A DNA stretch of 37,849 bases from Nemertoderma westbladi. Its lineage: Eukaryota; Animalia; Xenacoelomorpha. The translations under genes were made by a program, and so were the position numbers. The DNA lies in contig JAUCBJ010000255.1 of NCBI GenBank assembly GCA_032718475.1, forward strand, positions 1-37,849, in the 5' to 3' direction. Each line of letters opens with the position of its first letter. The stretch's first letter is position 1. Below, in pieces: positions 9,021-37,849 of this stretch. The notes under the pieces are model-generated. The model was not told the DNA's origin and searched no databases. It was given only the letters and a program-made list of their open reading frames with translations.

Positions 9021-9767
9021 ACTCGAGTACTTGGACAAATATGGGACCTTGACAACGACGAACTCGGATATAATGTATCAAATGTTCACAACTTTATATC
9101 TTCAATTAAACCATGCAAACGAGCAGTTCTTCAATTATTTGCTCGTTTATATGATCCTCTAGGTCTTATTGCTCCGTTTACAGCAAAAATGAAAATTGCC
9201 TTCCATGAACTTTGTGTAGAAAAGGCTGATTGGAATGACGAATTACCACCATCTATTCTAAAGCAATGGAATGAATGGATGAAAACATTACAACTTATTA
9301 ACGAAGTTCGGATACCAAGATATTTATTTAATAAGATCAGCGAGAACGTCTCAACTCAAATCCATGGATTTGGAGATGCCAGTAAAGACATATATGCAGC
9401 GGCAGTATATGTGAGATCTACATTCATTGATGGTTCAATATCAGTACAACTCATAGCATCACGTTCAAAATTAAGCAAACCTATAAAAACAAGCAAAGTC
9501 AAGTTAAACATACCAAGACTGGAATTACAAGCATCGCTCATTACATCAAGGCTTGTTAAGTTCGTAGACAAAGGTCTCAGAATTGAAAATTGTGAACATA
9601 TCATGTGGTCAGATGCTACAGATGTACTTTATTGGATTCATTCTACAAGCAAAGAATGTAACGCATTCGTACAACGTCGTGTGGAAATTATACGACAACT
9701 TACAACTGAACTTAATGCAACTTGGAGGCATATACCAGGTACATTAAACCCTGCGGACATTGCAACA
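9021..9767 (+). pseudogene. BEL/Pao pol, RNase H (Peptidase_A17-like) part, 5' of the LINE insertion
   Basis: Track ORF 8994..9776. The ATG is a satellite/filler junction product and the stop lies in the LINE tail. Confidence 0.88.
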
Positions 9768-12180: not shown

Positions 12181-14154
12181 AGGGGGTTAAATGCGCAACA
12201 ATTAATCAACAATAAAGTATGGTTTAACGGACCGCAATTCTTATATCAACCCAGTGAGAAATCATGGCCGAATAATAGCACACTAAGTCTTCATCCATCA
12301 GTAGATTGTCAAGTGGAATTCAAAGCGTTAACAATAACACACAATACAACAAATAACAGCATAAACATAAATGAAACATTAGAAAATGTACTAGATATAA
12401 ACAAATTCAACAATAAGCAAGCACCTATAAGACGTTTAGCATGGGTGACTCGTTTCATAAGTAATCTGAAAGCAAAACGTAATAATACGCAATTGATATT
12501 AGAATCAAACTTGACAGCAGATGAATTAAATAATGCAGAAACAATTATTATTAAACACATGCAAATGAAATCTTATCCCTCTGAATACAAGTACTTGAAA
12601 AACCCAACGAAATCAAAGTGTCCAAATATGGTAAAGGTTCTAAATCTTTATCTAGACCCTAAAGGTATCATTCGACTCAATAGTCGAATTAAATCACCTC
12701 TCCAATCACTGGAGTCACAAAAACCCATATTAATACACCCCACAAGCTATTATGCAACATTGATAATAAGAGAATCCCACATTCAAGTATGTCACTCTCG
12801 TGTTCGAGATACACTTGCTCAAGTACGTGAAAAGTACTGGATTCCTAGAGCAAGACAAATAATTAAACGTACAATTCGAGATTGTGTTATTTGTAAGCAC
12901 ATTCAAGGCTATCCTTATAGGAGACCTCCGTTCAGCCCCTTACCTGAGGAAAGATTAACATCAAATATCCTTCCATTCACCAATGTAGGTATTGATTTCC
13001 TAGGTGCGATTTCTGTAGTCAAATCATTATCTGATCCAGTAGGTTCAATGACAAAGGTATATATTTGCCTATTTACATGTGCGGTTATACGAGCAATTCA
13101 TTTAGAAGTAGTTACAAGTCTCCATTCCTCGTCTTTCATTGCGGCATTGACTCGTTTCGTAGGAAGACGAGGCATTCCATCAGTCATCTTCAGTGACAAT
13201 GCATCAAATTTTAAGAGTTCATCAGAGGAAATCAAGGCATATAAGGCATTTTTAACAGACCCAATCATACTTAGAGAATTTGGTAAACTAAATATTACAT
13301 GGAAATTCAATGTACAAAGATACCCAGCAGCATATGGGTTTATAGAGCGTTGTGTGGGGACAGTGAAATCTAATTTGAAAAAACTAATGGGGCGTGCGGT
13401 GCTAACAGAAGAGGAATTACAAACAGTATTGATTTCATGTGAGGCTGCTATAAATAGCAGACCACTAACATACATCTATTCAGACAATAATGAGTGCTTA
13501 ACACTATCACCCAGTCATTTCTTGGTCGGCAAAAGGCTATGCGCTTTACCAAGCACCACTATAAATCTTAACAACATGGAAATGACACATCGAAATTTTC
13601 AAGATCGTCTTCGATACCAAGAGATGGCTGCGAACTATTTTTGGTCAGTATGGCGGAAAGACTACCTCAGAGAATTAAGAGCTAGTCATCGTTCGAATAA
13701 TATCAGCCCACATTCACTTGTAGTCCCAGATATTGGAGATATATGCCTTCTAGTGGATAAGAAACTTCCAAGATGCCTTTGGAAACTATGTAAGGTAGAC
13801 AGATTGATTGTCAGTAAGGATGGTCATATACGAGCAGTTGGGGTTATCATTGTAAAACGTGGTAAACAACATAAACAACTGGTACGATCCATTTCTCATG
13901 TAATACCATTAGAAATCAATGACAAAAACCACACTAGTACAACAAAAACAAAACAAACAACCGCGACGTATGATATAGAATCAATAGAATCAATAGACAT
14001 TGACACGTCGGATGATGATTATTCTAATGATGAAAATGACGTCAAAAGTGATGACGTCGAAATCGTTGAATGCAATAGCAATGAGGACCGTGTTCAGGTT
14101 CGACACCCAAGAGTAGCCACTAAAAAAATCACGAAGGGATTTTATAGATACTAA
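12181..14154 (+). pseudogene. BEL/Pao pol, integrase part, 3' of the LINE insertion
   Basis: Track ORF 12067..14154. The first 38 codons are antisense LINE sequence. The BEL frame starts RGLNAQQL and stays open to the stop. Confidence 0.9.
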
Positions 14155-14672: not shown

Positions 14673-17600
14673 AGAGTTAAAACGCGGCAATAACGGCTGG
14701 GTGGGAAGTTTATAGAAGAGTTTAAACGGGGCAATTTACGGTTGGGTGGGAAGTTTATAGAAGAGTTAAAACGGGGCAAAAACGGATGGGTGGGAAGTTT
14801 ATAGAAGCGTTAAAACGGGGCAATAACGGCTGGGTGGGAAGTTTATAGAAGAGTTAAAACGGGACAATAACGGGTGGGTGGGAAGTTTATAGAAGAGTTT
14901 AAACGGGGCAATAACGGGTGGGTGGGAAGTTTATAGAAGAGTTAAAACGGGGCAATAACGGCTGGGTGGGAAGTTTATAGAAGAGTTAAAACGGGGCCAT
15001 AACGGCTGGGTGGGAAGTTTATAGAAGAGTTAATACGGGGCCATAACGGCTGGGTGGGAAGTTTATAGAAGAGTTAAAACGGGCCAATAACGGCTGGGTT
15101 GGAAGTTTATAGAAGCGTTAAAACGGGGCAATAACGGCTGGGTGGGAAGCTTATAGAAGCGTTAAAACGGGGCAATAACGGCTGGGTGTGAAGTTTATAG
15201 AAGAGTTAAAACGCGGCAATAACGGCTGGGTGGGAAGTTTATAGAAGAGTTAAAACGGGGCAATAACGGCTGGGTGGGAAGTTTATAGAAGAGTTAAAAC
15301 GGGGCCATAACGGCTGGGTGGGAAGTTTATAGAAGAGTTAAAACGGGGCCATAACGGCTGGGTGGGAAGTTTATAGAAGAGTTAAAACGGGCCAATAACG
15401 GCTGGGTTGGAAGTTTATAGAAGAGTTTAAACGGGGCAATAACGTGTGGGTGGGAAGTTTATAGAAGAGTTAAAACGGGGCAATAACGGGTGGGTGGGAA
15501 GTTTATAGAAGAGTTAAGACGGGGCAATAACGGATGGGTGGGAAGTTTATAGAAGCGTTAAAACGGGGAAATAACGGCTGGGTGGGGAGGTTATAGAAGA
15601 ATTAAAACGGGGCAATAACGGGTGGGTGGGAAGTTTATAGAAGCGTTAAAACGGGGCAATAACGGCTGGGTGGGAAGTTTATAGAAGCGTTAAAACGGGG
15701 CAATAACGGCTGGGTGGGAAGTTTATAGAAGAGTTTAAACGGGGCAATTTACGGGTGGGTGGGAAGTTTATAGAAGAGTTAAAACGGGGCAAAAACGGAT
15801 GGGTGGGAAGTTTATAGAAGCGTTAAAACGGGGCAATAACGGCTGGGTGGGAAGTTTATAGAAGAGTTAAAACGGGGCCATAACGGCTGGGTGGGAAGTT
15901 TATAGAAGAGTTAAAACGGGGCCATAACGGCTGGGTGGGAAGTTTATAGAAGAGTTAAAACGGGCCAATAACGGCTGGGTTGGAAGTTTATAGAGGCGTT
16001 AAAACGGGGCAATAACGGCTGGGTGGGAAGTTTATAGAAGAGTTAAGACGGGGCAATAACGGCTGGGTGGGAAGTTTATAGAAGCGTTAAAACGGGGCAA
16101 TAACGGCTGGGTGGGAAGTTTATAGAAGAGTTAAAACGGGCCAATAACGGCTGGGTGGGAAGTTTATAGAAGAGTTTAAACGGGGCAATAACGGGTGGGT
16201 GTGAAGTTTATAGAAGAGTTTAATTTAAACGGGGCAATAACGGGTGGGTTGGAAGTATATAGAAGAGTTAAAACGGGGCAATAACGGCTGAGTGGGAAGT
16301 TTATAGAAGCGTTAAAACGGGGCAATAACGGCTGGGTGGGAAGTTTATAGAAGCGTTAAAACGGGGCAATAACGGCTGGGTGGGAAGTTTATAGAAGAGT
16401 TAAAACGGGCCAATAACGGCTGGGTGGGAAGTTTATAGAAGAGTTAAAACGGGCCAATAACGGCTGGGTGGGAAGTTTATAGAAGAGTTAAAACGGGGCC
16501 TTAACGGCTGGGTGGGAAGTTTATAGAAATTTTAAAACGGGCCAATAACGGCTGGGTGGGAAGTTTATAGAAGAGTTTAAACGGGGCAATAACGGGTGGG
16601 TGGGAAGTTTATAGAAGAGTTAAAACGCGGCAATAACAGCTGGGTGGGAAGTTTATAGAAGCGTTAAAACGGGGCAATAACGGTTGGGTGGGAAGTTTAT
16701 AGAAGCGTTAAAACGGGGCAATAACGGCTGGGTGGGAAGTTTATAGAAGAGTTTAAACGGGGCAATTTACGGGTGGGTGGGAAGTTTATAGAAGAGTTAA
16801 AACGGGGCAAAAACGGATGGGTGGGAAGTTTATAGAAGCGTTAAAACGGGGCAATAACGGCTGGGTGGGAAGTTTATAGAAGAGTTAAAACGGGGCCATA
16901 ACGGCTGGGTGGGAAGTTTATAGAAGAGTTAAAACGGGGCCATAACGGCTGGGTGGGAAGTTTATAGAAGAGTTAAAACGGGCCAATAACGGCTGGGTTG
17001 GAAGTTTATAGAGGCGTTAAAACGGGGCAATAACGGCTGGGTGGGAAGTTTATAGAAGAGTTAAGACGGGGCAATAACGGCTGGGTGGGAAGTTTATAGA
17101 AGCGTTAAAACGGGGCAATAACGGCTGGGTGGGAAGTTTATAGAAGAGTTAAAACGGGCCAATAACGGCTGGGTGGGAAGTTTATAGAAGAGTTTAAACG
17201 GGGCAATAACGGGTGGGTGTGAAGTTTATAGAAGAGTTTAATTTAAACGGGGCAATAACGGGTGGGTTGGAAGTATATAGAAGAGTTAAAACGGGGCAAT
17301 AACGGCTGAGTGGGAAGTTTATAGAAGCGTTAAAACGGGGCAATAACGGCTGGGTGGGAAGTTTATAGAAGCGTTAAAACGGGGCAATAACGGCTGGGTG
17401 GGAAGTTTATAGAAGAGTTAAAACGGGCCAATAACGGCTGGGTGGGAAGTTTATAGAAGAGTTAAAACGGGCCAATAACGGCTGGGTGGGAAGTTTATAG
17501 AAGAGTTAAAACGGGGCCTTAACGGCTGGGTGGGAAGTTTATAGAAATTTTAAAACGGGCCAATAACGGCTGGGTGGGAAGTTTATAGAAGAGTTTAAAC

Positions 17601-20600
17601 GGGGCAATAACGGGTGGGTGGGAAGTTTATAGAAGAGTTAAAACGCGGCAATAACAGCTGGGTGGGAAGTTTATAGAAGCGTTAAAACGGGGCAATAACG
17701 GTTGGGTGTGAAGTTTATAGAAGAGTTAAAACGCGGCAATAACGGCTGGGTGGGAAGTTTATAGAAGAGTTTAAACGGGGCAATAACGGGTGGGTGGGAA
17801 GTTTATAGAAGAGTTAAAACGGGGCAATGACGGGTGGGTGGGAAGTTTATAGAAGAGTTAAAACGGGGCAATAACGGTTGGGTGTGAAGTTTATAGAAGA
17901 GTTAAAACGCGGCAATAACGGCTGGGTGGGAAGTTTATAGAAGAGTTTAAACGGGGCAATTTACGGGTGGGTGGGAAGTTTATAGAAGAGTTAAAACGGG
18001 GCAAAAACGGATGGGTGGGAAGTTTATAGAAGCGTTAAAACGGGGCAATAACGGCTGGGTGGGAAGTTTATAGAAGAGTTAAAACGGGACAATAACGGGT
18101 GGGTGGGAAGTTTATAGAAGAGTTTAAACGGGGCAATAACGGGTGGGTGGGAAGTTTATAGAAGAGTTAAAACGGGGCAATAACGGCTGGGTGGGAAGTT
18201 TATAGAAGAGTTAAAACGGGGCCATAACGGCCGAGTGGGAAGTTTATAGAAGAGTTAAAACGGGGCCATAACGGCTGGGTGGGAAGTTTATAGAAGAGTT
18301 AAAACGGGCCAATAACGGCTGGGTTGTAAGTTTATAGAAGCGTTAAAAAGGGGCAATAACGGCTGGGTGGGAAGTTTATAGAAGAGTTAAGACGGGGCAA
18401 TAACGGCTGGGTGGGAAGTTTATAGAAGCGTTAAAACGGGGCAATAACGGCTGGGTGTGAAGTTTATAGAAGAGTTAAAACGGGGCAATAACGGCTGGGT
18501 GGGAAGTTTATAGAAGAGTTAAAACGGGGCAATAACGGCTGGGTGGGAAGTTTATAGAAGAGTTAAAACGGGGCCATAACGGCTGGGTTGGAAGTTTATA
18601 GAAGCGTTAAAACGGGGCAATAACGGCTGGGTGGGAAGTTTATAGAAGAGTTAAGACGGGGCAATAACGGCTGGGTGGGAAGTTTATAGAAGCGTTAAAA
18701 CGGGGCAATGACGGGTGGGTGGGAAGTTTATAGAAGAGTTAAAACGGGGCAATAACGGTTGGGTGTGAAGTTTATAGAAGAGTTAAAACGCGGCAATAAC
18801 GGCTGGGTGGGAAGTTTATAGAAGAGTTTAAACGGGGCAATTTACGGTTGGGTGGGAAGTTTATAGAAGAGTTAAAACGGGGCAAAAACGGATGGGTGGG
18901 AAGTTTATAGAAGCGTTAAAACGGGGCAATAACGGCTGGGTGGGAAGTTTATAGAAGAGTTAAAACGGGACAATAACGGGTGGGTGGGAAGTTTATAGAA
19001 GAGTTTAAACGGGGCAATAACGGGTGGGTGGGAAGTTTATAGAAGAGTTAAAACGGGGCAATAACGGCTGGGTGGGAAGTTTATAGAAGAGTTAAAACGG
19101 GGCCATAACGGCTGGGTGGGAAGTTTATAGAAGAGTTAAAACGGGGCCATAACGGCTGGGTGGGAAGTTTATAGAAGAGTTAAAACGGGCCAATAACGGC
19201 TGGGTTGGAAGTTTATAGAAGCGTTAAAACGGGGCAATAACGGCTGGGTGGGAAGTTTATAGAAGCGTTAAAACGGGGCAATAACGGCTGGGTGTGAAGT
19301 TTATAGAAGAGTTAAAACGGGGCAATAACGGCTGGGTGGGAAGTTTATAGAAGAGTTAAAACGGGGCAATAACGGCTGGGTGGGAAGTTTATAGAAGAGT
19401 TAAAACGGGGCCATAACGGCTGGGTGGGAAGTTTATAGAAGAGTTAAAACGGGGCCATAACGGCTGGGTGGGAAGTTAATAGAAGAGTTAAAACGGGCCA
19501 ATAACGGCTGGGTTGGAAGTTTATAGAAGAGTTTAAACGGGGCAATAACGTGTGGGTGGGAAGTTTATAGAAGAGTTAAAACGGGGCAATAACGGGTGGG
19601 TGGGAAGTTTATAGAAGAGTTAAGACGGGGCAATAACGGATGGGTGGGAAGTTTATAGAAGCGTTAAAACGGGGCAATAACGGCTGGGTGGGGAGGTTAT
19701 AGAAGAATTAAAACGGGGCAATAACGGGTGGGTGGGAAGTTTATAGAAGCGTTAAAACGGGGCAATAACGGCTGGGTGGGAAGTTTATAGAAGCGTTAAA
19801 ACGGGGCAATAACGGCTGGGTGGGAAGTTTATAGAAGAGTTTAAACGGGGCAATTTACGGGTGGGTGGGAAGTTTATAGAAGAGTTAAAACGGGGCAAAA
19901 ACGGATGGGTGGGAAGTTTATAGAAGCGTTAAAACGGGGCAATAACGGCTGGGTGGGAAGTTTATAGAAGAGTTAAAACGGGGCCATAACGGCTGGGTGG
20001 GAAGTTTATAGAAGAGTTAAAACGGGGCCATAACGGCTGGGTGGGAAGTTTATAGAAGAGTTAAAACGGGCCAAAAACGGCTGGGTTGGAAGTTTATAGA
20101 AGCGTTAAAACGGGGCAATAACGGCTGGGTGGGAAGTTTATAGAAGAGTTAAGACGGGGCAATAACGGCTGGGTGGGAAGTTTATAGAAGCGTTAAAACG
20201 GGGCAATAACGGCTGGGTGGGAAGTTTATAGAAGAGTTAAAACGGGCCAATAACGGCTGGGTGGGAAGTTTATAGAAGAGTTTAAACGGGGCAATAACGG
20301 GTGGGTGTGAAGTTTATAGAAGAGTTTAATTTAAACGGGGCAATAACGGGTGGGTTGGAAGTATATAGAAGAGTTAAAACGGGGCAATAACGGCTGAGTG
20401 GGAAGTTTATAGAAGCGTTAAAACGGGGCAATAACGGCTGGGTGGGAAGTTTATAGAAGCGTTAAAACGGGGCAATAACGGCTGGGTGGGAAGTTTATAG
20501 AAGAGTTAAAACGGGCCAATAACGGCTGGGTGGGAAGTTTATAGAAGAGTTAAAACGGGCCAATAACGGCTGGGTGGGAAGTTTATAGAAGAGTTAAAAC

Positions 20601-23600
20601 GGGGCCTTAACGGCTGGGTGGGAAGTTTATAGAAATTTTAAAACGGGCCAATAACGGCTGGGTGGGAAGTTTATAGAAGGGTTTAAACGGGGCAATAACG
20701 GGTGGGTGGGAAGTTTATAGAAGAGTTAAAACGCGGCAATAACGGCTGGGTGGGAAGTTTATAGAAGCGTTAAAACGGGGCAATAACGGTTGGGTGTGAA
20801 GTTTATAGAAGAGTTAAAACGCGGCAATAACGGCTGGGTGGGAAGTTTATAGAAGAGTTTAAACGGGGCAATAACGGGTGGGTGGGAAGTTTATAGAAGA
20901 GTTAAAACGGGGCAATGACGGGTGGGTGGGAAGTTTATAGAAGAGTTAAAACGGGGCAATAACGGTTGGGTGTGAAGTTTATAGAAGAGTTAAAACGCGG
21001 CAATAACGGCTGGGTGGGAAGTTTATAGAAGAGTTTAAACGGGGCAATTTACGGGTGGGTGGGAAGTTTATAGAAGAGTTAAAACGGGGCAAAAACGGAT
21101 GGGTGGGAAGTTTATAGAAGCGTTAAAACGGGGCAATAACGGCTGGGTGGGAAGTTTATAGAAGAGTTAAAACGGGACAATAACGGGTGGGTGGGAAGTT
21201 TATAGAAGAGTTTAAACGGGGCAATAACGGGTGGGTGGGAAGTTTATAGAAGAGTTAAAACGGGGCAATAACGGCTGGGTGGGAAGTTTATAGAAGAGTT
21301 AAAACGGGGCCATAACGGCTGGGTGGGAAGTTTATAGAAGCGTTAAAACGGGGCAATAACGGGTGGGTGGGAAGTTTATAGAAGAGTTAAAACGGGGCAA
21401 TAACGGCTGGGTGGGAAGTTTATAGAGGAGTTAAAACGGGGCAATAACGGCTGGGTGGGAAGTTTATAGAAGAGTTAAAACGGGCCAATAACGGCTGGGT
21501 TGGAAGTTTATAGAAGCGTTAAAACGGGGCAATAACGGCTGGGTGGGAAGTTTATAGAAGAGTTAAGACGGGGCAATAACGGCTGGGTGGGAAGTTTATA
21601 GAAGCGTTAAAACGGGGCAATAACGGCTGGGTGTGAAGTTTATAGAAGAGTTAAAACGGGGCAATAACGGCTGGGTGGGAAGTTTATAGAAGAGTTAAAA
21701 CGGGCCAATAACGGCTGGGTGGGAAGTTTATAGAAGAGTTAAAACGGGGCAATAACGGGTGGGTGGGAAGTTTATAGAAGCGTTAAAACGGGGCAATAAC
21801 GGCTGGGTGGGAAGTTTATAGAAGCGTTAAAACGGGGCAATAACGGCTGGGTGGGAAGTTTATAGAAGAGTTTAAACGGGGCAATTTACGGGTGGGTGGG
21901 AAGTTTATAGAAGAGTTAAAACGGGGCAAAAACGGATGGGTGGGAAGTTTATAGAAGCGTTAAAACGGGGCAATAACGGCTGGGTGGGAAGTTTATAGAA
22001 GAGTTAAAACGGGGCCATAACGGCTGGGTGGGAAGTTTATAGAAGAGTTAAAACGGGGCCATAACGGCTGGGTGGGAAGTTTATAGAAGAGTTAAAACGG
22101 GCCAAAAACGGCTGGGTTGGAAGTTTATAGAAGCGTTAAAACGGGGCAATAACGGCTGGGTGGGAAGTTTATAGAAGAGTTAAGACGGGGCAATAACGGC
22201 TGGGTGGGAAGTTTATAGAAGCGTTAAAACGGGGCAATAACGGCTGGGTGGGAAGTTTATAGAAGAGTTAAAACGGGCCAATAACGGCTGGGTGGGAAGT
22301 TTATAGAAGAGTTTAAACGGGGCAATAACGGGTGGGTGTGAAGTTTATAGAAGAGTTTAATTTAAACGGGGCAATAACGGGTGGGTTGGAAGTATATAGA
22401 AGAGTTAAAACGGGGCAATAACGGCTGAGTGGGAAGTTTATAGAAGCGTTAAAACGGGGCAATAACGGCTGGGTGGGAAGTTTATAGAAGCGTTAAAACG
22501 GGGCAATAACGGCTGGGTGGGAAGTTTATAGAAGAGTTAAAACGGGCCAATAACGGCTGGGTGGGAAGTTTATAGAAGAGTTAAAACGGGCCAATAACGG
22601 CTGGGTGGGAAGTTTATAGAAGAGTTAAAACGGGGCCTTAACGGCTGGGTGGGAAGTTTATAGAAATTTTAAAACGGGCCAATAACGGCTGGGTGGGAAG
22701 TTTATAGAAGGGTTTAAACGGGGCAATAACGGGTGGGTGGGAAGTTTATAGAAGAGTTAAAACGCGGCAATAACGGCTGGGTGGGAAGTTTATAGAAGCG
22801 TTAAAACGGGGCAATAACGGTTGGGTGTGAAGTTTATAGAAGAGTTAAAACGCGGCAATAACGGCTGGGTGGGAAGTTTATAGAAGAGTTTAAACGGGGC
22901 AATAACGGGTGGGTGGGAAGTTTATAGAAGAGTTAAAACGGGGCAATGACGGGTGGGTGGGAAGTTTATAGAAGAGTTAAAACGGGGCAATAACGGTTGG
23001 GTGTGAAGTTTATAGAAGAGTTAAAACGCGGCAATAACGGCTGGGTGGGAAGTTTATAGAAGAGTTTAAACGGGGCAATTTACGGGTGGGTGGGAAGTTT
23101 ATAGAAGAGTTAAAACGGGGCAAAAACGGATGGGTGGGAAGTTTATAGAAGCGTTAAAACGGGGCAATAACGGCTGGGTGGGAAGTTTATAGAAGAGTTA
23201 AAACGGGACAATAACGGGTGGGTGGGAAGTTTATAGAAGAGTTTAAACGGGGCAATAACGGGTGGGTGGGAAGTTTATAGAAGAGTTAAAACGGGGCAAT
23301 AACGGCTGGGTGGGAAGTTTATAGAAGAGTTAAAACGGGGCCATAACGGCTGGGTGGGAAGTTTATAGAAGCGTTAAAACGGGGCAATAACGGGTGGGTG
23401 GGAAGTTTATAGAAGAGTTAAAACGGGGCAATAACGGCTGGGTGGGAAGTTTATAGAGGAGTTAAAACGGGGCAATAACGGCTGGGTGGGAAGTTTATAG
23501 AAGAGTTAAAACGGGCCAATAACGGCTGGGTTGGAAGTTTATAGAAGCGTTAAAACGGGGCAATAACGGCTGGGTGGGAAGTTTATAGAAGAGTTAAGAC

Positions 23601-26600
23601 GGGGCAATAACGGCTGGGTGGGAAGTTTATAGAAGCGTTAAAACGGGGCAATAACGGCTGGGTGTGAAGTTTATAGAAGAGTTAAAACGGGGCAATAACG
23701 GCTGGGTGGGAAGTTTATAGAAGAGTTAAAACGGGCCAATAACGGCTGGGTGGGAAGTTTATAGAAGAGTTAAAACGGGGCCATAACGGCTGGGTGGGAA
23801 GTTTATAGAAGAGTTAAAACGGGGCCATAACGGCTGGGTGGGAAGTTTATAGAAGAGTTAAAACGGGCCAATAACGGCTGGGTTGGAAGTTTATAGAAGA
23901 GTTTAAACGGGGCAATAACGTGTGGGTGGGAAGTTTATAGAAGAGTTAAAACGGGGAAATAACGGGTGGGTGGGAAGTTTATAGAAGAGTTAAGACGGGG
24001 CAATAACGGATGGGTGGGAAGTTTATAGAAGCGTTAAAACGGGGCAATAACGGCTGGGTGGGAAGGTTATAGAAGAATTAAAACGGGGCAATAACGGGTG
24101 GGTGGGAAGTTTATAGAAGCGTTAAAACGGGGCAATAACGGCTGGGTGGGAAGTTTATAGAAGAGTTTAAACGGGGCAATTTACGGGTGGGTGGGAAGTT
24201 TATAGAAGAGTTAAAACGGGGCAAAAACGGATGGGTGGGAAGTTTATAGAAGCGTTAAAACGGGGCAATAACGGCTGGGTGGGAAGTTTATAGAAGAGTT
24301 AAAACGGGCCAATAACGGCTGGGTGGGAAGTTTATAGAAGAGTTAAAACGGGCCAATAACGGCTGGGTGGAAAGTTTATAGAAGAGTTAAAACGGGGCCA
24401 TAACGGCTGGGTGGGAAGTTTATAGAAGCGTTAAAACGGGGCAATAACGGGTGGGTGGGAAGTTTATAGAAGAGTTAAAACGGGGCAATAACGGCTGGGT
24501 GGGAAGTTTATAGAAGAGTTAAAACGGGCCAATAACGGCTGGGTGGGAAGTTTATAGAAGCGTTAAAACGGGGCAATAACGGGTGGGTGGGAAGTTTATA
24601 GAAGAGTTAAAACGGGGCCATAACGGCTGGGTGGGAAGTTTATAGAAGAGTTAAAACGGGCCAATAACGGCTGGGTTGGAAGTTTATAGAAGCGTTAAAA
24701 CGGGGCAATAACGGCTGGGTGGGAAGTTTGTAGAAGAGTTAAGACGGGGCAATAACGGCTGGGTGGGAAGTTTATAGAAGCGTTAAAACGGGGCAATAAC
24801 GGCTGGGTGTGAAGTTTATAGAAGAGTTAAAACGGGGGCAATAACGGCTGGGTGGGAAGTTTATAGAAGAGTTAAAACGGGGCAATAACGCGTGGGTGGG
24901 AAGTTTATAGAAGCGTTAAAACGGGCCAATAACGGCTGGGTGGGAAGTTTATAGAAGAGTTAAAGCGGGGCAATAACGGCTGGGTTGGAAGTTTATAGAA
25001 GAGTTTAAACGGGGCCATAACGGCTGGGTGGGAAGTTTATAGAAGAGTTAAAACGGGCCAATAACGGCTGGGTTGGAAGTTTATAGAAGAGTTAAAACGG
25101 GGCCATAACGGCTGGGTGGGAAGTTTATAGAAGAGTTAAAACGGGGCCATAACGGCTGGGTGGGAAGTTTATAGAAGAGTTAAAACGGGCCAATAACGGC
25201 TAGGTTGGAAGTTTATAGAAGAGTTTAAACGGGGCAATAACGTGTGGGTGGGAAGTTTATAGAAGAGTTAAAACGGGGCAATAACGGGTGGGTGGGAAGT
25301 TTATAGAAGAGTTAAGACGGGGCAATAACGGATGGGTGGGAAGTTTATAGAAGCGTTAAAACGGGGCAATAACGGCTGGGTGGGAAGGTTATAGAAGAAT
25401 TAAAACGGGGCAATAACGGGTGGGTGGGAAGTTTATAGAAGCGTTAAAACGGGGCAATAACGGCTGGGTGGGAAGTTTATAGAAGCGTTAAAACGGGGCA
25501 ATAACGGCTGGGTGTGAAGTTTATAGAAGAGTTAAAAGGGGAAATAACGGCTGGGTGGAAAGTTTATAGAAGCGTTAAAACGGGGCAATAACGGCTGGGT
25601 GTGAAGTTTATAGAAGAGTTAAAACGGGGCAATAACGGGTGGGTGGGAAGTTTATAGAAGCGTTAAAACGGGCCAATAACGGCTGGGTGGGAAGTTTATA
25701 GAAGAGTTAAAGCGGGGCAATAACGGCTGGGTGGGAAGTTTATAGAAGCGTTAAAACGGGGCAATAACGGCTGGGTGGGAAGTTCATAGAATAGTTAAAA
25801 AGGGGCAATAACGGCTGGGTGGGAAGTTTATAGAAGCGTTAAAAAGAGGCAATAACGGCTGGGTGGGAAGTTTATAGAAGCATTAAAACGGGGCAATAAC
25901 GGCTGGGTGGGAAGTTCATAGAAGAGTTAAAAAGGGGCAATAACGGCTGGTTGGGAAGTTTATAGAAGCGTTAAAACGGGGCAATAACGGCTGGGTGGGA
26001 AATTTATAGAAGAGTTAAAAAGAGGCAATAACGGCTGGGTGGGAAGTTTATAGAAGAATTAAAACGGGGCAATAACGGGTGGTTGGGAAGTTTATAGAAG
26101 CGTTAAAACGGGGCAATAACGGCTGGGTGGGAAGTTTATATAAGAGTTAGAACAGGGCAATAACGACTGGTTGGGAAGTTTATAGAAGCGTTAAAAAGGG
26201 GCTATAACGGGTGGGTTGGAAGTTTATAGAAGAGTTAAAACGGGGCAATAACGGGTGGGTGGGAAGTTTATAGAAGAGTTAAAACGGGGCAATAACGGCT
26301 GGGTGGGAAGTTTATAGAAGAGTTTAAACGGGGCAATTTACGGGTGGGTGGGAAGTTTATAGAAGAGTTAAAACGGGGCAAAAACGGATGGGTGGGAAGT
26401 TTATAGAAGCGTTAAAACGGGGCAATAACGGCTGGGTGGGAAGTTTATAGAAGAGTTAAAACGGGCCAATAACGGCTGGGTGGGAAGTTTATAGAAGAGT
26501 TAAAACGGGCCAATAACGGCTGGGTGGAAAGTTTATAGAAGAGTTAAAACGGGGCCATAACGGCTGGGTGGGAAGTTTATAGAAGCGTTAAAACGGGGCA

Positions 26601-27820
26601 ATAACGGGTGGGTGGGAAGTTTATAGAAGAGTTAAAACGGGGCAATAACGGCTGGGTGGGAAGTTTATAGAAGCGTTAAAACGGGGCAATAACGGGTGGG
26701 TGGGAAGTTTATAGAAGAGTTAAAACGGGGCCATAACGTCTGGGTGGGAAGTTTATAGAAGAGTTAAAACGGGCCAATAACGGCTGGGTTGGAAGTTTAT
26801 AGAAGCGTTAAAACGGGGCAATAACGGCTGGGTGTGAAGTTTATAGAAGAGTTAAAAGGGGAAATAACGGCTGGGTGGAAAGTTTATAGAAGCGTTAAAA
26901 CGGGGCAATAACGGCTGGGTGTGAAGTTTATAGAAGAGTTAAAACGGGGCAATAACGGGTGGGTGGGAAGTTTATAGAAGCGTTAAAACGGGCCAATAAC
27001 GGCTGGGTGGGAAGTTTATAGAAGAGTTAAAGCGGGGCAATAACGGCTGGGTGGGAAGTTTATAGAAGCGTTAAAACGGGGCAATAACGGCTGGGTGGGA
27101 AGTTCATAGAATAGTTAAAAAGGGGCAATAACGGCTGGGTGGGAAGTTTATAGAAGCGTTAAAAAGAGGCAATAACGGCTGGGTGGGAAGTTTATAGAAG
27201 CATTAAAACGGGGCAATAACGGCTGGGTGGGAAGTTCATAGAAGAGTTAAAAAGGGGCAATAACGGCTGGTTGGGAAGTTTATAGAAGCGTTAAAACGGG
27301 GCAATAACGGCTGGGTGGGAAATTTATAGAAGAGTTAAAAAGAGGCAATAACGGCTGGGTGGGAAGTTTATAGAAGAATTAAAACGGGGCAATAACGGGT
27401 GGTTGGGAAGTTTATAGAAGCGTTAAAACGGGGCAATAACGGCTGGGTGGGAAGTTTATATAAGAGTTAGAACAGGGCAATAACGACTGGTTGGGAAGTT
27501 TATAGAAGCGTTAAAAAGGGGCTATAACGGGTGGGTTGGAAGTTTATAGAAGAGTTAAAACGGGGCAATAACGGGTGGGTGGGAAGTTTATAGAAGAGTT
27601 AAAACGGGGCAATAACGGCTGGGTGTAAAGTTTATATAAGAGTTAGAACAGGGCAATAACGACTGGTTGGGAAGTTTATAGAAGAGTTAAAAAGGGGCAA
27701 TAACGGGTGGTTGGGAAGTTTATAGAAGGGTTAAAACGGGTCAATAACGGCTGGGTGGGAAGTTTATATACAGTAAGAGATAAAACAGGGCAATAACGGG
27801 TGGGTGGGAAGTTTATAGAA
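14673..27820. repeat. 44-bp satellite, right arm (~300 units) with higher-order block duplications
   Basis: Same monomer with recurring variant strings. More divergent units toward 27820. Confidence 0.98.
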
Positions 27821-28273
27821 ATGGGTTTGGGTGCTTTAGTTTGACTCTTCATATGAATACGACAAGGATGTCTTTGACAGACAACTTAAATAAAATAACA
27901 ATAAATATTAATCAAAAATGAAAATATTATGTTTTTAACTCGTTAGGTAGAAATGAATGTATATACGGCGGGTGAGAATGGTTTGTATTATGGAAGAGAA
28001 CCTATTGCCGCCTAGAACTCTGCACGGGGGTTGAGCCCGTTACCGTAAGATAACGTCGTAGTTATCTTACTAAGTAAGATTGCCAATTACTTTCATTTAC
28101 CAGACCATCTGTATACTTTTAACTGCGCATCGGGACAATACACATGCCATTGAGATGCCATCGCAATTATTTTATAGTAACATTACGGGTTGGTATGGTG
28201 AGTGACGGTTCAGGTACCTCGACAATACGGTGTATTAAATAGAGAACACCATTGTCTAAGCTGTAATACTCAC

Positions 28274-28371
28274 CTGAATAGAAGAAGTAAAGCCATTAAT
28301 ATGTTCTGGAAATTGTTATTTCGCGTCAGTGCTGAGTTTTCAGTGGCATCTAATTCGACATTACCAAACAT
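28274..28371 (-). CDS. Cav2: Cav2-type calcium channel alpha-1 subunit, exon encoding IVS5-P loop (MFGNVELDATENSALTRNNNFQNILMALLLLFR)
   Basis: 98-nt exon, acceptor TTATTTCAG, donor GTGAGT, phase 0/2. FGN...NNF...ALLLLFR motif. Confidence 0.95.
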
Positions 28372-28485
28372 CTGAAATAAGATATAAAACGGTTTCAACT
28401 ATAATAATATAATATATATCATACTGCCAATCAAACTCTTGTTTGGGTTGTTTCGTTTCATCCAGCGCCCCATACCGGTACCAAC

Positions 28486-28686
28486 CTGCATTCCAACTAT
28501 AGCGTAAATAAAAAATATCATTCCGATGAGGAGACAGACGTATGGTAAGGCGAGGAAAGCCTGTCCGAAAGTCCACATGAGGATCCTAATGTCGCTTCCT
28601 TGTCTCAGTAGTTTGATTAGTCTAGCAGCCCGGAACAGTCTCAGTACACCGACCGCAGGAAACGATGCGGAACCCTCAACCAGATT
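28486..28686 (-). CDS. Cav2: Cav2-type calcium channel alpha-1 subunit, exon encoding IVS4-IVS5 ([67 protein letters not shown])
   Basis: 201-nt exon, acceptor GTTCTAG, donor GTTGGT, phase 0/0. [16 protein letters not shown] and ALPYVCLLI are Cav2 (CACNA1A/B/E, cacophony, unc-2) signatures. Confidence 0.96.
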
Positions 28687-28959
28687 CTAGAACGTTATAA
28701 TAAATAGTTATTATGCATGTTTCCATTGAAAATATACAAAATAAAACATAAAAGAACATATAAAACAAAGAATAAAATATGCAATGAATATAAAATTGAA
28801 TACATGAGACAAGGTACTGACTGGTACATAGCGAATGAGGGAGTTATACTTATAGTTCAACGTGGAAAATAGATAACCTTTTAGTGTAATGCGAAAATAA
28901 TTGTTGCAGTATTTAAAACTATAGGAGTAAGAGTTCAGTTAGCATACAGTTTCTACAGC

Positions 28960-29190
28960 CATTATTTAGACCAGGGAGTACGAATAAAGTCTAACGACTT
29001 ATTTTCAGAGGGAATTGTTACTCATTTTGCGACAATTCAAGGATACAATGCAGGTGTGTCCTGGCTATAGTCAATCTCTAGCGTTCATAACGAGACGAAA
29101 AATCCATGTCCCCGATGCGGGGATCGAAACCACGACCTTTGGAATCAAGTATATGAATTCAACGGATTAAACCATTACGATTCAAGATGG
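28960..29190 (-). mobile_element. Degenerate tRNA-derived SINE-like element in Cav2 intron
   Basis: Minus strand CGTAATGGTTTAA...AAGGTCGTGGTTTCGATCCCCGC resembles A box and T-arm/B box. Boundaries approximate. Confidence 0.45.
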
Positions 29191-29541
29191 TACCACCATG
29201 TAGGAATGAACAGGAATAACTATAAACAGCATGCTGCATGTTGCAGTTTCATTCATAATGATATGCCGGATTATCGTCAAAATTGTGCCGCCACAACTTC
29301 CTATTATAAATATGAAATAACGATGCTTATAGCTGTTGCTTATGCAACGTCCTTATAGTTCGGATGCAGATCTTGAGTGTTACAGGCAGCAGTAACTATA
29401 GCAACACTGGCCAATAAGAGTAGTATTTATTTTACTGTACAAATGTAATTTTATCAGTACGATACTCACATAAAATTAAAAATATGTCAATATGTGTCCA
29501 AATTTCACGAACAAAAGATTAGCGAAATAGTTATTACTTAC

Positions 29542-29631
29542 GAATTGTTCTATAGTTGTCAGCGCCACATCAACTATGCTGCCAATAACAGTGATCGCAT
29601 CGAATATATTCCACATTTCATAGAAATAATA
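29542..29631 (-). CDS. Cav2: Cav2-type calcium channel alpha-1 subunit, exon encoding domain IV S3 (YYFYEMWNIFDAITVIGSIVDVALTTIEQF)
   Basis: 90-nt exon, acceptor TTTCCTCAG, donor GTAAGT, phase 0/0. WNIFD..TV.GSI.D is the IVS3 motif of Cav channels. Confidence 0.93.
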
Positions 29632-29799
29632 CTGAGGAAAAAAAGATAAATAGTAAATTAAACGGCCAAACTGTCAAAAACCGCATTGTGATTGCAGGTT
29701 ATTTCCTACAAAAATCAATATAATTCTTTTAATATTTTTCTGTTGCCCAAATAAATGCAAACTTTGATCAAACACAAGTGTATCGAATATATAATTAAC

Positions 29800-32700
29800 G
29801 AACGCCACCATTAAAAATATACATGTAACCATAGGAACGCCACCGTTAAAAATATAAATGTAACCATAGGAACGCCACAGTTAAAAATATACATGTAACC
29901 ATAGGAACGCCACCTTTAACACTATACATGTAACCATAGGAACGCCACCTTTAACACTATACATGTAACCATAGGAACGCCACCGTTAAAAATATACATG
30001 TAACCATTGGAACGCCACCGTTAAAAAATATAAATGTAACCATAGGAACGCCACCGTTAAAAATATACATGGAACCATAGGAACGCCACCTTTAAAAATA
30101 TAAATATAACCATAGAAACGCCACCTTTACCACTATACATGTAACGATAGGAACGCCACCGTTAACACTATCCATGTAACCATAGGAACGCCACCTTTAA
30201 CACTATACATGTAACCATAGGAACGCCACCTTTAACACTATACATGTAACCATAGGAACGCCACCGTTAACACTATCCATGTAACCATAGGAACGCCACC
30301 GTTAACACTATCCATGTAACCATAGGAACGCCACCTTTAACACTATCCATGTAACCATAGGAACGCCACCTTTAACACTATACATGTAACCATAGGAACG
30401 CCACCTTTAACACTATACATGTAACCATAGGAACGCCACCGTTAACACTATCCATGTAACCATAGGAACGCCACCGTTAACACTATCCATGTAACCATAG
30501 GAACGCCACCTTTAACACTATACATGGAACCATAGGAACGCCACCGTTAACACTATCCATGTAACCATAGGAACGCCACCTTTAACACTATACATGTAAC
30601 CATAGGAACGCCACCGTTAAAAATATACATGTAACCATAGGAACGCCACCTTTAACACTATCCATGTAACCATAGGAACGCCACCTTTAACACTATACAT
30701 GTAACCATAGGAACGCCACCGTTAAAAATATACACGTAACCATAGGAACGCCACCTTTAGCACTATACATGTAACCATAGGAACGCCACCTTTAACACTA
30801 TACATGTAACCATAGGAACGCCACCGTTAACACTATACATGGAACCATAGGAACGCCACCGTTAAAAATATACATGTAACCATAGGAACGCCACCTTTAA
30901 CACTATCCATGTAACCATAGGAACGCCACCGTTAACACTATCCATGTAACCATAGGAACGCCACCTTTAACACTATCCATGTAACCATAGGAACGCCACC
31001 TTTAACACTATACATGTAACCATAGGAACGCCACCTTTAACACTATACATGTAACCATAGGAACGCCACCGTTAACACTATCCATGTAACCATAGGAACG
31101 CCACCGTTAACACTATCCATGTAACCATAGGAACGCCACCTTTAACACTATACATGGAACCATAGGAACGCCACCGTTAACACTATCCATGTAACCATAG
31201 GAACGCCACCTTTAACACTATACATGTAACCATAGGAACGCCACCGTTAACACTATCCATGTAACCATAGGAACGCCACCGTTAACACTATCCATGTAAC
31301 CATAGGAACGCCACCTTTAACAATATACATGGAACCATAGGAACGTCACCTTTAACACTATACATGTAACCATAGGAACGCCACCGTTAACACTATCCAT
31401 GTAACCATAGGAACGCCACCTTTAACACTATACATGGAACCATAGGAACGCCACCGTTAAAAATATACATGTAACCTTAGGAACGCCACCTTTAACACTA
31501 TACATGTAACCATAGGAACGCCACCGTTAACACTATCCATGTAACCATAGGAACGCCACCGTTAACACTATCCATGTAACCATAGGAACGCCACCTTTAA
31601 CACTATACATGGAACCATAGGAACGCCACCGTTAACACTATCCATGTAACCATAGGAATGCCACCTTTACCCTATCCATGTAACCATAGGAACGCCACCG
31701 TTAACACTATCCATGTAACCATAGGAACGCCACCGTTAACACTATCCATGTAACCATAGGAACGCCACCGTTAACACTATCCATGTAACCATAGGAACGC
31801 CACCTTTAATACTATACATGTAACCATAGGAACGCCACCGTTAACACTATCCATGTAACCATAGGAACGCCACCGTTAACACTATCCATGTAACCATAGG
31901 AACGCCACCTTTAACACTATACATGGAACCATAGGAACGCCACCGTTAACACTATCCATGTAACCATAGGAACGCCACCGTTAACACTATCCATGTAACC
32001 ATAGGAACGCCACCGTTAGCACTGTCCATGTAACCATTAGGAACGCCACCTTTAACACTATACATGTAACCATAGGAACGCAACCGTTAACATTATACAT
32101 GTAACCATAGGAACGCCACCTTTAACACTATACATGGAACCATAGGAACGCCACCGTTAACACTATCCATGTAACCATAGGAACGCCACCTTTAATACTA
32201 TACATGGAACCATAGGAACGCCACCGTTAACACTATCCATGTAACCATAGGAACGCCACCGTTAACACTATCCATGTAACCATAGGAACGCCACCTTTAA
32301 CAATATACATGGAACCATAGGAACGCCACCGTTAAAAATATAAATGTAACCATAGGAACGCCACCTTTAACACTATACATGTAACCATAGGAACGCCACC
32401 TTTAACACTATACATGTAACCATAGGAACGCCACCGTTAACACTATCCATGTAACCATAGGAACGCCACCTTTAACACTATACATGTAACCATAGGAACG
32501 CCACCGTTAAAAATATACATGTAACAATCATAGGAACGCCACCGTTAACACTATACATGTAACCATAGGAACGCCACCGTTAACACTATCCATGTAACCA
32601 TAGGAACGCCACCTTTAACACTATACATGGAACCATAGGAACGCCACCTTTAACACTATACATGTAACCATAGGAACGCCACCGTTAACACTATCCATGT

Positions 32701-34308
32701 AACCATAGGAACGCCACCTTTAACACTATACATGGAACCATAGGAACGCCACCTTTAACACTATCCATGTAACCATAGGAACGCCAACTTTAACACTATA
32801 CATGTAACCATAGGAACGCCACCTTTAACACTATCCATGTAACCATAGGAACGCCACCGTTAACACTATCCATGTAACCATAGGAACGCCACCGTTAAAA
32901 ATATAAACGTAACCATAGGAACGCCACCTTTAACACTATACATGGAACCATAGGAACGCCACCGTTAACACTATACATGTAACCATAGGAACGCCACCGT
33001 TAACACTATACATGGAACCATAGGAACGCCACCGTTAACACTATACATGTAACCATAGGAACGCCACCTTTAACACTATACATGTAACCATAGGAACGCC
33101 ACCGTTAACACTATACATGGAACCATAGGAACGCCACCGTTAAAAATATACATGTAACCATAGGAACGCCACCTTTAACACTATCCATGTAACCATAGGA
33201 ACGCCACCGTTAACACTATCCATGTAACCATAGGAACGCCACCGTTAGCACTGTCCATGTAACCATAGGAACGCCACCTTTAACACTATACATGTAACCA
33301 TAGGAACGCCACCGTTAACACTATACATGTAACCATAGGAACGCCACCGTTAAAAATATACATGTAACCATAGGAACGCCACCTTTAACACTATCCATGT
33401 AACCATAGGAACGCCACCGTTAACACTATCCATGTAACCATAGGAACGCCACCGTTAACACTATCCATGTAACCATAGGAACGCCACCTTTAACACTATA
33501 CATGTAACCATAGGAACGCCACCTTTAACACTATCCATGTAACCATAGGAACGCCACCGTTAACACTATCCATGTAACCATAGGATCGCCACCGTTAACA
33601 CTATCCATGTAACCATAGGAACGCCACCTTTAACACTATACATGGAACCATAGGAACGCCACCGTTAAAACTATACATGTAACCATAGGAACGCCACCTT
33701 TAACACTATACATGTAACCATAGGAACGCCACCGTTAACACTATCCATGTAACCATAGGAACGCCACCGTTAACACTATCCATGTAACCATAGGAACGCC
33801 ACCTTTAACACTATACATGGAACCATAGGAACGCCACCGTTAACACTATCCATGTAACCATAGGAACGCCAACTTTAACACTATACATGGAACCATAGGA
33901 ACGCCACCGTTAACACTATCCATGTAACCATAGGAACGCCACCTTTAACACTATACATGGAACCATAGGAACGCCACCGTTAACACTATCCATGTAACCA
34001 TAGGAACGCCACCGTTAACACTATCCATGTAACCATAGGAACGCCACCTTTCACACTATACATGGAACCAAAGGAACGCCACCGTTAACACTATCCATGT
34101 AACCATAGGAACGCCACCTTTAACACTATACATGGAACCATAGGAACGCCACCGTTAACACTATCCATGTAACCATAGGAACGCCACCGTTAACACTATC
34201 CATGTAACCATAGGAACGCCACCGTTAACACTATCCATGTAACCATAGGAACGCCACCGTTAACACTATCCATGTAACCATAGGAACGCCACCTTTAACA
34301 CTATCCAT
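29800..34308. repeat. 35-bp satellite (~129 units), consensus GTAACCATAGGAACGCCACC(G/T)TTAACACTAT(A/C)CAT
   Basis: Period counted directly (30211 to 30246). Confidence 0.98.
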
Positions 34309-37300
34309 ACACATAAACAACCAACCTTTCCGAATCCGATGAGTTTCATGACGGCCTCCACAGTAAATATCAACCAACCTTTCTGAATCCGATGAGTTTC
34401 ATGACGGCCTCCACAGTAAATATCAACCAACCTTTCTGAATCCGATGAGTTTCATGACGGCCTCCACAGTAAATATCACACATAAACAACCAACCTTTCT
34501 GAATCCGATGAGTTTCATGACGGCCTCCACAGTAAATATCACACATAAACAACCAACCTTTCTGAATCCGATGAGTTTCATGACGGCCTCCACAGTAAAT
34601 ATCAACCAACCTTTCTGAATCCGATGAGTTTCATGACGGCCTCCACAGTAAATATCACACATAAACAACCAACCTTTCTGAATCCGATGAGTTTCATGAC
34701 GGCCTCCACAGTAAATATCACACATAAACAACCAACCTTTCTGAATCCGATGAGTTTCATGACGGCCTCCACAGTAAATATCAACCAACCTTTCAGAATC
34801 CGATGAGTTTCATGACGGCCTCCACAGTAAATATCAACCAACCTTTCTGAATCCGATGAGTTTCATGACGGCCTCCACAGTAAATATCAACCAACCTTTC
34901 TGAATCCGATGAGTTTCATGACGGCCTCCACAGTAAATATCAACCAACCTTTCTGAATCCGATGAGTTTCATGACGGCCTCCACAGTAAATATCAACCAA
35001 CCTTTCTGAATCCGATGAGTTTCATGACGGCCTCCACAGTAAATATCACACATAAACAACCAACCTTTCTGAATCCGATGAGTTTCATGACGGCCTCCAC
35101 AGTAAATATCACACATAAACAACCAACCTTTCTGAATCCGATGAGTTTCATGACGGCCTCCACAGTAAATATCACACATAAACAACCAACCTTTCTGAAT
35201 CCGATAAGTTTCATGACGGCCTCCACAGTAAATATCAACCAACCTTTCTGAATCCGATGAGTTTCATGACGGCCTCCACAGTAAATATCAACCAACCTTT
35301 CTGAATCCGATGAGTTTCATGACGGCCTCCACAGTAAATATCAACCAACCTTTCTGAATCCGATGAGTTTCATGACGGCCTCCACAGTAAATATCACACA
35401 TAAACAACCAACCTTTCTGAATCCGATGAGTTTCATGACGGCCTCCACAGTAAATATCAACCAACCTTTCTGAATCCGATGAGTTTCATGACGGCCTCCA
35501 CAGTAAATATCAACCAACCTTTCTGAATCCGATGAGTTTCATGACGGCCTCCACAGTAAATATCACACATAAACAACCAACCTTTCTGAATCCGATGAGT
35601 TTCATGACGGCCTCCACAGTAAATATCACACATAAACAACCAACCTTTCTGAATCCGATGAGTTTCATGACGGCCTCCACAGTAAATATCACACATAAAC
35701 AACCAACCTTTCTGAATCCGATAAGTTTCATGACGGCCTCCACAGTAAATATCAACCAACCTTTCTGAATCCGATGAGTTTCATGACGGCCTCCACAGTA
35801 AATATCACACATAAACAACCAACCTTTCTGAATCCGATGAGTTTCATGACGGCCTCCACAGTAAATATCACACATAAACAACCAACCTTTCTGAATCCGA
35901 TGAGTTTCATGACGGCCTCCACAGTAAATATCAACCAACCTTTCAGAATCCGATGAGTTTCATGACGGCCTCCACAGTAAATATCAACCAACCTTTCTGA
36001 ATCCGATGAGTTTCATGACGGCCTCCACAGTAAATATCAACCAACCTTTCTGAATCCGATGAGTTTCATGACGGCCTCCACAGTAAATATCAACCAACCT
36101 TTCTGAATCCGATGAGTTTCATGACGGCCTCCACAGTAAATATCAACCAACCTTTCTGAATCCGATGAGTTTCATGACGGCCTCCACAGTAAATATCACA
36201 CATAAACAACCAACCTTTCTGAATCCGATGAGTTTCATGACGGCCTCCACAGTAAATATCACACATAAACAACCAACCTTTCTGAATCCGATGAGTTTCA
36301 TGACGGCCTCCACAGTAAATATCAACCAACCTTTCTGAATCCGATGAGTTTCATGACGGCCTCCACAGTAAATATCACACATAAACAACCAACCTTTCTG
36401 AATACGAAGAGTTTCATGACGGCCTCCACAGTAAATATCAACCAACCTTTCTGAATCCGATGAGTTTCATGACGGCCTCCACAGTAAATATCAACCAACC
36501 TTTCTGAATCCGATGAGTTTCATGACGGCCTCCACAGTAAATATCACACATAAACAACCAACCTTTCTGAATCCGATGAGTTTCATGACGGCCTCCACAG
36601 TAAATATCACACATAAACAACCAACCTTTCTGAATCCGATGAGTTTCATGACGGCCTCCACAGTAAATATCACACATAAACAACCAACCTTTCTGAATCC
36701 GATGAGTTTCATGACGGCCTCCACAGTAAATATCAACCAACCTTTCTGAATCCGATGAGTTTCATGACGGCCTCCACAGTAAATATCACACATAAACAAC
36801 CAACCTTTCTGAATACGAAGAGTTTCATGACGGCCTCCACAGTAAATATCAACCAACCTTTCTGAATCCGATGAGTTTCATGACGGCCTCCACAGTAAAT
36901 ATCAACCAACCTTTCTGAATCCGATGAGTTTCATGACGGCCTCCACAGTAAATATCACACATAAACAACCAACCTTTCTGAATCCGATGAGTTTCATGAC
37001 GGCCTCCACAGTAAATATCACACATAAACAACCAACCTTTCTGAATCCGATGAGTTTCATGACGGCCTCCACAGTAAATATCACACATAAACAACCAACC
37101 TTTCTGAATCCGATGAGTTTCATGACGGCCTCCACAGTAAATATCACACATAAACAACCAACCTTTCTGAATCCGATGAGTTTCATGACGGCCTCCACAG
37201 TAAATATCAACCAACCTTTCTGAATCCGATGAGTTTCATGACGGCCTCCACAGTAAATATCAACCAACCTTTCTGAATCCGATGAGTTTCATGACGGCCT

Positions 37301-37849
37301 CCACAGTAAATATCACACATAAACAACCAACCTTTCTGAATCCGATGAGTTTCATGACGGCCTCCACAGTAAATATCACACATAAACAACCAACCTTTCT
37401 GAATCCGATGAGTTTCATGACGGCCTCCACAGTAAATATCACACATAAACAACCAACCTTTCTGAATCCGATGAGTTTCATGACGGCCTCCACAGTAAAT
37501 ATCACACATAAACAACCAACCTTTCTGAATCCGATGAGTTTCATGACGGCCTCCACAGTAAATATCAACCAACCTTTCTGAATCCGATGAGTTTCATGAC
37601 GGCCTCCACAGTAAATATCACACATAAACAACCAACCTTTCTGAATACGAAGAGTTTCATGACGGCCTCCACAGTAAATATCAACCAACCTTTCTGAATC
37701 CGATGAGTTTCATGACGGCCTCCACAGTAAATATCAACCAACCTTTCTGAATCCGATGAGTTTCATGACGGCCTCCACAGTAAATATCACACATAAACAA
37801 CCAACCTTTCTGAATCCGATGAGTTTCATGACGGCCTCCACAGTAAATA
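34309..37849. repeat. 53/63-bp tandem array (~60 units, continues past window) derived from the Cav2 IVS2 exon end and its splice donor
   Basis: Minus-strand unit ATATTTACTGTGGAGGCCGTCATGAAACTCATCGGATTCAGAAAG|GTTGGTTG(TTTATGTGTG) encodes IFTVEAVMKLIGFRK followed by GT. Confidence 0.93.

Follow-up and report, generated by a model that had tools for sequence, protein, structure and literature searches.

In Nemertoderma westbladi, the end of the IVS2 exon of a probable Cav2 calcium channel gene is repeated in tandem together with the start of the following intron, and with a probability of about 75% only the first donor of this array is used while all further copies are removed with the intron. 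The window, i.e. the whole stretch of 37,849 nucleotides that was analysed (contig JAUCBJ010000255.1), contains the array and four downstream exons of the gene as follows:

34309 to 37849, minus strand: donor-spanning tandem array in which the IVS2 exon end and its 5' splice site occur 61 times and which extends past the window end
34326 to 34373, minus strand: last 48-nt copy of the exon part, to which the spliced contig of run X4 aligns with one letter different
29800 to 34308, no strand assigned: 35-bp satellite of ~129 copies, beginning 18 bases into the intron past the last donor
29542 to 29631, minus strand: IVS3 exon, 90 nt, phase 0/0
28486 to 28686, minus strand: IVS4-S5 exon, 201 nt, with a GTTGGT donor at 28485, accepting the IVS3 exon as well as an IVS1-like exon end (X4 record 26)
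28274 to 28371, minus strand: repeat IV S5-pore linker exon, 98 nt (X4 record 25)
7121 to 7325, minus strand: repeat IV exon with the pore (GEAW) and S6, 205 nt, joined to 28274 in X4 over a 20.9-kb intron

Read on the minus strand from 37849 to 34309, the 45-nt coding part of the unit is found 60 times in whole and once cut by the window edge. The first-pass annotation had estimated about 60 tandem 5' splice sites, which agrees with the 61 AAG/GTTGGT donors counted in 34309-37849; all of them read AAAG/GTTGGT, span 37805 to 34325 and, as head-to-tail copies in the intron, precede the IVS3 acceptor in the direction of transcription. These donors are followed by a 63-nt unit in 30 cases, by a 53-nt unit in another 30 cases, and by the native intron start in the case of the last one. 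The coding parts are nearly invariant, since 52 of 60 are identical to the majority sequence and only 11 of 2700 bases are mismatched, and the TRF score of 4822 is far above chance. Compared to the longer unit, the shorter one lacks 10 bases between two TG copies. A TTG that is common to exon and intron fits the junction of the shorter unit as well; in this form the exon part comprises 48 nt, because TTG precedes ATA in the real exon. The difference affects the reading frame: read-through of the 63-nt unit keeps the frame open over 21 codons, that of the 53-nt unit leads to a stop after two codons.

The order of the units was analysed for traces of the array's history. A recurring variant is peculiar to the 53-nt units, and these units lie within repeated blocks. 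For the shared neighbourhood of rare variants, a score of 33 was obtained, compared to a mean of 6.3 in shuffled arrays and reached in none of 2000 shuffles; such sharing is expected if blocks were duplicated by unequal exchange. The longest repeated block in the unit order (10 versus 6.7 when shuffled, reached by 55 of 2000 shuffles) was weakly above expectation, hence the case for block duplication is carried by the rare-variant context test. No Rfam match was obtained in 27800-37849, and the fold of four units was less stable than that of any of 200 shuffled sequences (z +2.9), which gives no indication that the later donors are masked in hairpins.

The decisive evidence on the nature of the unit came from sequencing runs. 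The locus was found in four runs (X1 to X4) from three studies, and next to no words of it in the runs X5 and X6; none of the listed runs with the locus is recorded as RNA. X4 is the sole spliced run and was seen as contigs, from which rare forms are dropped. Although it is labelled "DNA?", it has to be regarded as spliced RNA, because further introns are skipped at CT..AC ends until the pore exon is reached. Its record 20 (164 nt, depth 80.6), the single X4 record (1 of 1) on one unit with flanks, consists of 89 unique upstream letters, 48 unit letters and 27 letters from the start of the exon at 29631, and it is unbroken at the donor. Hand translation of 30 of the 89 upstream letters, which are absent from the window, continues the S2 frame like in homologues; the body of the upstream IVS2 exon was likewise not found in the window by sequence search. 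Because this contig joins unique upstream sequence, one unit and the next exon, the array unit is the real IVS2 exon end of the host channel. The tandem amplification of the IVS2 exon-intron junction that the first-pass annotation had proposed is thereby borne out, including the phase-0 join of the unit to the YYFYEMWN exon at 29631; the real upstream exon ends in the unit sequence and not in another one, the outcome that had been named as contrary to this proposal. The additional GTTGGT donor it had pointed out at 28485 is indeed spliced in X4 (joint 28371/28486). The single letter by which the X4 contig differs from the last copy is probably due to that copy's own variant at 34331.

The same run bears on the question which donor is chosen. 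Within the intron part of the unit (34270-34324) the depth of X4 is 0, and no X4 contig reads past the donor. This lack of intron-part coverage and the unbroken join in record 20 fit the use of the first donor. Hence, the earlier suggestion of an active competition among the donors found no counterpart in the lone spliced run, in which no contig enters the intron part.

The gene hosting the array appears, on protein similarity, to encode a divergent Cav2 (N/P/Q/R-type) alpha-1 subunit, of which the window covers part of repeat IV. The four exons have GT-AG ends and together give 198 codons without a stop, with 41-60% identity to the longer database hits. The best solved-structure hits of the S4-S5 exon were Cav2.2/2.1/2.3 (80-77 bits), followed by Cav1 (75-71 bits); an identity as Nav was rejected, because Nav reached 37 bits at most compared to 80-77 bits for Cav2. 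The top database hits are named mostly Cav2 or type A, and the Cav2 features present comprise the repeat IV S4-S5 segment nearest to Cav2, the pore glutamate motif and the conserved phase-0 introns around IVS2 and IVS3. The divergence is evident as well: the best protein match to the conserved S4-S5 exon amounts to ~70-82%, and for the pore exon none of nine candidates in the protein searches was a close relative, while a second search gave three hits at 28-32%. A 25-row tree, built without the named hits whose alignments had 150 columns or fewer, placed the window protein on a long branch (2.81) and inside no starred set. A short S2-S3 loop in common with cnidarian Cav2 was rejected as a means of placement, since the branch is long and unplaced.

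Two observations on this coding region may be added. At 29575-29577, three adjacent substitutions occur in X2, X3 and X4, which replace Ile by Ala (the latter by hand translation) at codon 19 of the IVS3 exon and represent a coding polymorphism in S3. Moreover, in the Schistosoma bovis Cav2 model P0003 the IVS4-S5 exon is repeated several times in tandem, which is either an oddity of annotation or assembly, or a whole-exon analogue of the array.

The array is not confined to the assembled sample. The DNA runs X1 to X3 stem from two studies and carry two sample labels that differ from the assembled sample. In these runs, the unit contigs showed word depths of ~865-929 (X1), 2330 (X2) and 187 (X3), compared to ~24, 19-22 and 22 (with one piece at 6.5), respectively, for single-copy pieces. 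The depth ratios correspond to roughly 37 copies in X1, 106-121 in X2 and 8 or 29 in X3, bearing in mind that word depth does not equal copy number. The junction records among those listed from the three runs were all of the 63-nt kind, and record 19 of X3 (93 nt) has the same length as the loop simulated from a pure 63-nt array. In contrast to the 30 of 61 window donors that precede it, the 53-nt junction was found in none of the three DNA runs; its diagnostic stretch 34375-34390 had a depth of 0 in all four runs when summed over all aligned records, whereas the window haplotype would give records of this junction with 37-41 exact letters on that stretch according to simulation. Neither the junction between the exon and the first repeat nor that between the last repeat and the 35-bp satellite was seen among the DNA contigs listed. 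Collectively, the presence of the array in runs of two other sample labels confirms that it is real and common to several samples, contrary to the possibility of an assembly artefact that had been kept in reserve earlier. Length and unit make-up of the array likely differ between individuals, because the depth ratios range from ~8 to ~120 and the 53-nt junction is absent from the DNA runs.

These data are consistent with a rather simple course of events. A single small duplication, which spanned the splice site and would have comprised the last 45-48 exon bases and the intron start, likely gave rise to the array, and the array likely grows and shrinks by unequal exchange; its amplification may have proceeded like that of the other satellites filling the introns of this gene. 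The 63-nt unit, the sole form seen in the three DNA runs, would then represent the older form, and the 53-nt unit a younger one that may have arisen by the 10-base deletion between the TG copies and spread in the present haplotype. Exon definition could underlie the choice of the first donor, or else 5'-3' scanning of the kind tested in human F7. If a later donor were rarely used, the product would meet a stop after two codons in the case of the 53-nt unit or would contain a hydrophobic extra copy of S2 of 21 residues in the case of the 63-nt unit. The array is presumably neutral: if the first donor is chosen, all other copies leave together with the intron, which likely explains why the array is tolerated. 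In this regard, introns of the same gene are still spliced although they are filled with satellites, which make up 8050 of the 8218 visible bases of the array-bearing intron and 14785 of the 20948 bases of the intron before the pore exon.

The term tolerated may be too simple, because not all X4 transcripts contain the IVS2 exon. Record 26 of this run (60 nt, depth 43.6) joins 30 bases of an IVS1-like exon end to position 28686. Its upstream end reads ...LNTIALMVK on hand translation, is in frame with the IVS4 exon and matches the IVS1 end of starfish Cav2 at 8 of 10 residues. The junction depths were 102.1 for IVS3 to IVS4, 80.6 for IVS2 to IVS3 and 43.6 for IVS1 to IVS4, corresponding to shares of ~55% for the present IVS2 exon, ~30% for the loss of IVS2 together with IVS3, and ~15% for a third path. 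This third path of ~21 depth units seems to be implied by the record lengths. In a graph simulation, all three record lengths were reproduced by only 1 of 27 isoform sets, the one combining a 108-nt IVS2 exon (36 codons, the same length as in the Nematostella homologue) with three paths. A break after the first 27 bases of IVS3 was produced by all nine sets with three paths and by none of the 18 others. The third path might be a skip of IVS2 alone or the use of a twin of the IVS2 exon whose end is similar; the simulated sets covered skip paths, the twin-exon reading being outside of them. A beetle model contains two IVS2 exons in a row, and mutually exclusive exons 33a/33b have been described at the IVS2 position of Aplysia Cav2 in the available text of PMC10657410. 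Joint skipping of IVS2 and IVS3 was not found in a literature search with partial coverage that excluded supplements, and the accessible portions of PMC12149502 and PMC10078293 hold nothing on a Cav donor array or on joint skipping.

It is conceivable that the array itself weakens the recognition of the IVS2 exon in a dose-dependent manner, with decoy donors binding U1 and copies of the exon end causing the skipping of IVS2 with or without IVS3, such that the proportion of full-length channel would depend on how long the array is. We regard this explanation as unlikely. It would agree with the depth of the IVS1 to IVS4 junction in X4 (43.6, against 102.1 for IVS3 to IVS4), with the fact that the three-isoform set with the 108-nt IVS2 exon is the only one fitting the record lengths, and with the apparently about tenfold different copy number among the runs; furthermore, the downstream exons, one of them with a GTTGGT donor, are contained in a single unbroken contig of 1518 nt. 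The further away the usable donor lay in F7 minigenes, the more the exon was skipped (PMC1557585). However, the same paper reports that deletion of F7 repeats left splicing unchanged while the authentic donor was intact. The skipping was observed in one RNA run from one animal, and the sample of X4 has no DNA run, hence its splicing shares stand apart from any array length measured. Moreover, IVS3 is skipped together with IVS2 although it has a consensus GTAAGT donor 4.7 kb off the array, for which a donor decoy offers no simple explanation. Finally, IVS2 is subject to regulated alternative splicing in Aplysia Cav2 (33a/33b) where no array is reported in the available text of PMC10657410, and the third path may correspond to such a twin exon. 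The extension of this idea, according to which the decoy-donor array, variable in copy number, is a heritable rheostat for a calcium channel of the presynaptic type, with longer arrays leading to more loss of IVS2 or of IVS2 plus IVS3, has to be viewed as rather doubtful. If true, half of the fourth voltage sensor would be lost from part of the channels and individuals would differ in the amount of working channel.

It appears quite improbable that the later donors are used at an appreciable rate and add S2-like helices via the 63-nt unit, or that the AG/GT of each unit takes part in recursive splicing or gives rise to a new intron. Some features would suit such a role: 30 of the 61 donors precede an open frame of 21 codons with a higher best hydropathy over 19 residues (2.04) than the IVS3 exon (1.84), the in-frame 63-nt unit is the sole unit seen in the three DNA runs, and the human genes 6-16 and CBS make use of their nearest pseudo-sites according to the available text of PMC1557585. 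However, the intron part of the unit is covered by no X4 contig, and the AGs in the unit lack a pyrimidine tract. They are poor acceptors with a pyrimidine share of 0.47 compared to 0.65-0.88 at four real acceptors, and by this crude proxy no functional 3' splice site was found directly before the regenerated donor. Furthermore, one extra helix would be expected to reverse the topology of what follows in the repeat, and a unit length divisible by three has a prior of one in three. That the array or its 53-nt units are an artefact of assembly or library preparation, to which the end of the window within the array and the lack of the 53-nt junction in all four runs could be attributed, is highly improbable given the deep coverage of 63-nt units in all three DNA runs with the locus (two sample labels, two studies), while the recurring variant and the repeated blocks of the 53-nt units are unlike independent read errors.

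We return to the favoured reading, the use of the first donor and removal of the remaining copies with the intron, for which precedents exist. By the defining features tested, the array belongs to the known class of donor-spanning minisatellites (F7/CBS type, "mirage"). The following comparison refers to the accessible parts of the two papers concerned, PMC1557585 (Borensztajn et al. 2006) and PMC3087553 (Ebner et al. 2010). Intron 7 of human F7 contains a polymorphic 37-bp VNTR, the first monomer of which lies across the exon-intron boundary, and mutation has shown that the most upstream donor alone is used (PMC1557585). In minisatellites of this class, the first donor usually wins. The Nemertoderma array resembles F7 in having an authentic donor followed by identical pseudo-donors in polymorphic copy number. 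However, the F7 unit contains 4 exon bases and is present in 5-9 copies, whereas the array comprises at least 61 copies (perhaps ~100 in X2) with 45-48 coding bases per unit, occurs in two unit lengths and resides in an invertebrate-type Cav2 gene; first-donor scanning has been tested by mutation in F7 and is presumed for the array. Donors are also reiterated in the next intron of 6-16 (25 pseudo-sites), CBS (intron 13, 15-20 repeats), lamin B2 (10-15 x 100 bp) and PDGF (intron 4, 16-18 x 81 bp), with unit sizes bracketing those of the array but fewer copies; 6-16 and CBS additionally use two nearby pseudo-sites, whereas none was seen for the array in the X4 contigs (PMC1557585). The amphioxus "mirages" in Adh3 and the globins BflGb6 and BflGb9 are tandem duplications of exon-intron boundaries, the length of which varies between haplotypes, and no harm to splicing is reported in the text available (PMC3087553). 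They share with the array the invertebrate host, the sizeable exon parts and the unstable length. However, BflGb6 has 3-6 units that are 81-100% alike, whereas the array has tenfold more and nearly identical units and adjoins an unrelated satellite.

The novelty claimed earlier is thus to be restricted: the class itself has already been described (PMC1557585, PMC3087553, as far as their available text goes), while the size and the channel host remain. The array is larger than the F7, 6-16, CBS, lamin B2, PDGF and amphioxus cases as printed in those portions, and a donor array in a Cav gene was not found in the partial literature search, which excluded supplements. With regard to the host, alternative splicing of Aplysia Cav2 likewise affects the exon for the S1-S2 loop and S2 of repeat IV, but in the consulted part of that paper twin exons are swapped, whereas the alternative directly seen here drops IVS2 and IVS3 together.

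The array therefore represents a large natural case of a described oddity, with dozens of perfect donor copies in an expressed and spliced channel gene. It offers a ready test of first-donor choice outside mammals, because its alleles seem to differ about tenfold in copy number, and their read-through seems either to keep or to lose the frame. Should skipping track array length, this would be an unusual splicing-QTL mechanism acting on a Cav2 channel. For applied genome analysis the array is a trap in gene prediction and assembly, because the end of the IVS2 exon maps to at least 60 places.

Several other repeats and elements were found in the window. The 35-bp satellite next to the array is also present in the DNA runs X1 to X3; its derivation from the array unit was rejected, because the best local match comprised 6 bases. 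The 20.9-kb intron before the pore exon harbours a 44-bp satellite of one unit in two tracts, 14673-27820 (~298 copies) and 7358-8994 (~37 copies), which stops ~32 bases before the acceptor of the pore exon. A Pao/BEL-type retrotransposon (8994-14154, plus strand) with Peptidase_A17, integrase zinc finger and DUF5641 domains is inserted in this satellite, and is itself interrupted by a reverse-transcriptase ORF on the minus strand (10139-12205) that looks LINE-like on reading. The intron after the pore exon contains a frame of 513 codons with a zinc knuckle (2569-4110, minus strand; gag-like) and one of 476 codons (5615-7045, plus strand) that gave no Pfam match. Finally, short pieces of high-copy interspersed repeats, matched by many unrelated contigs, are situated in the IVS3-IVS4 intron at 28966-29008, 29111-29143 and 29257-29304.
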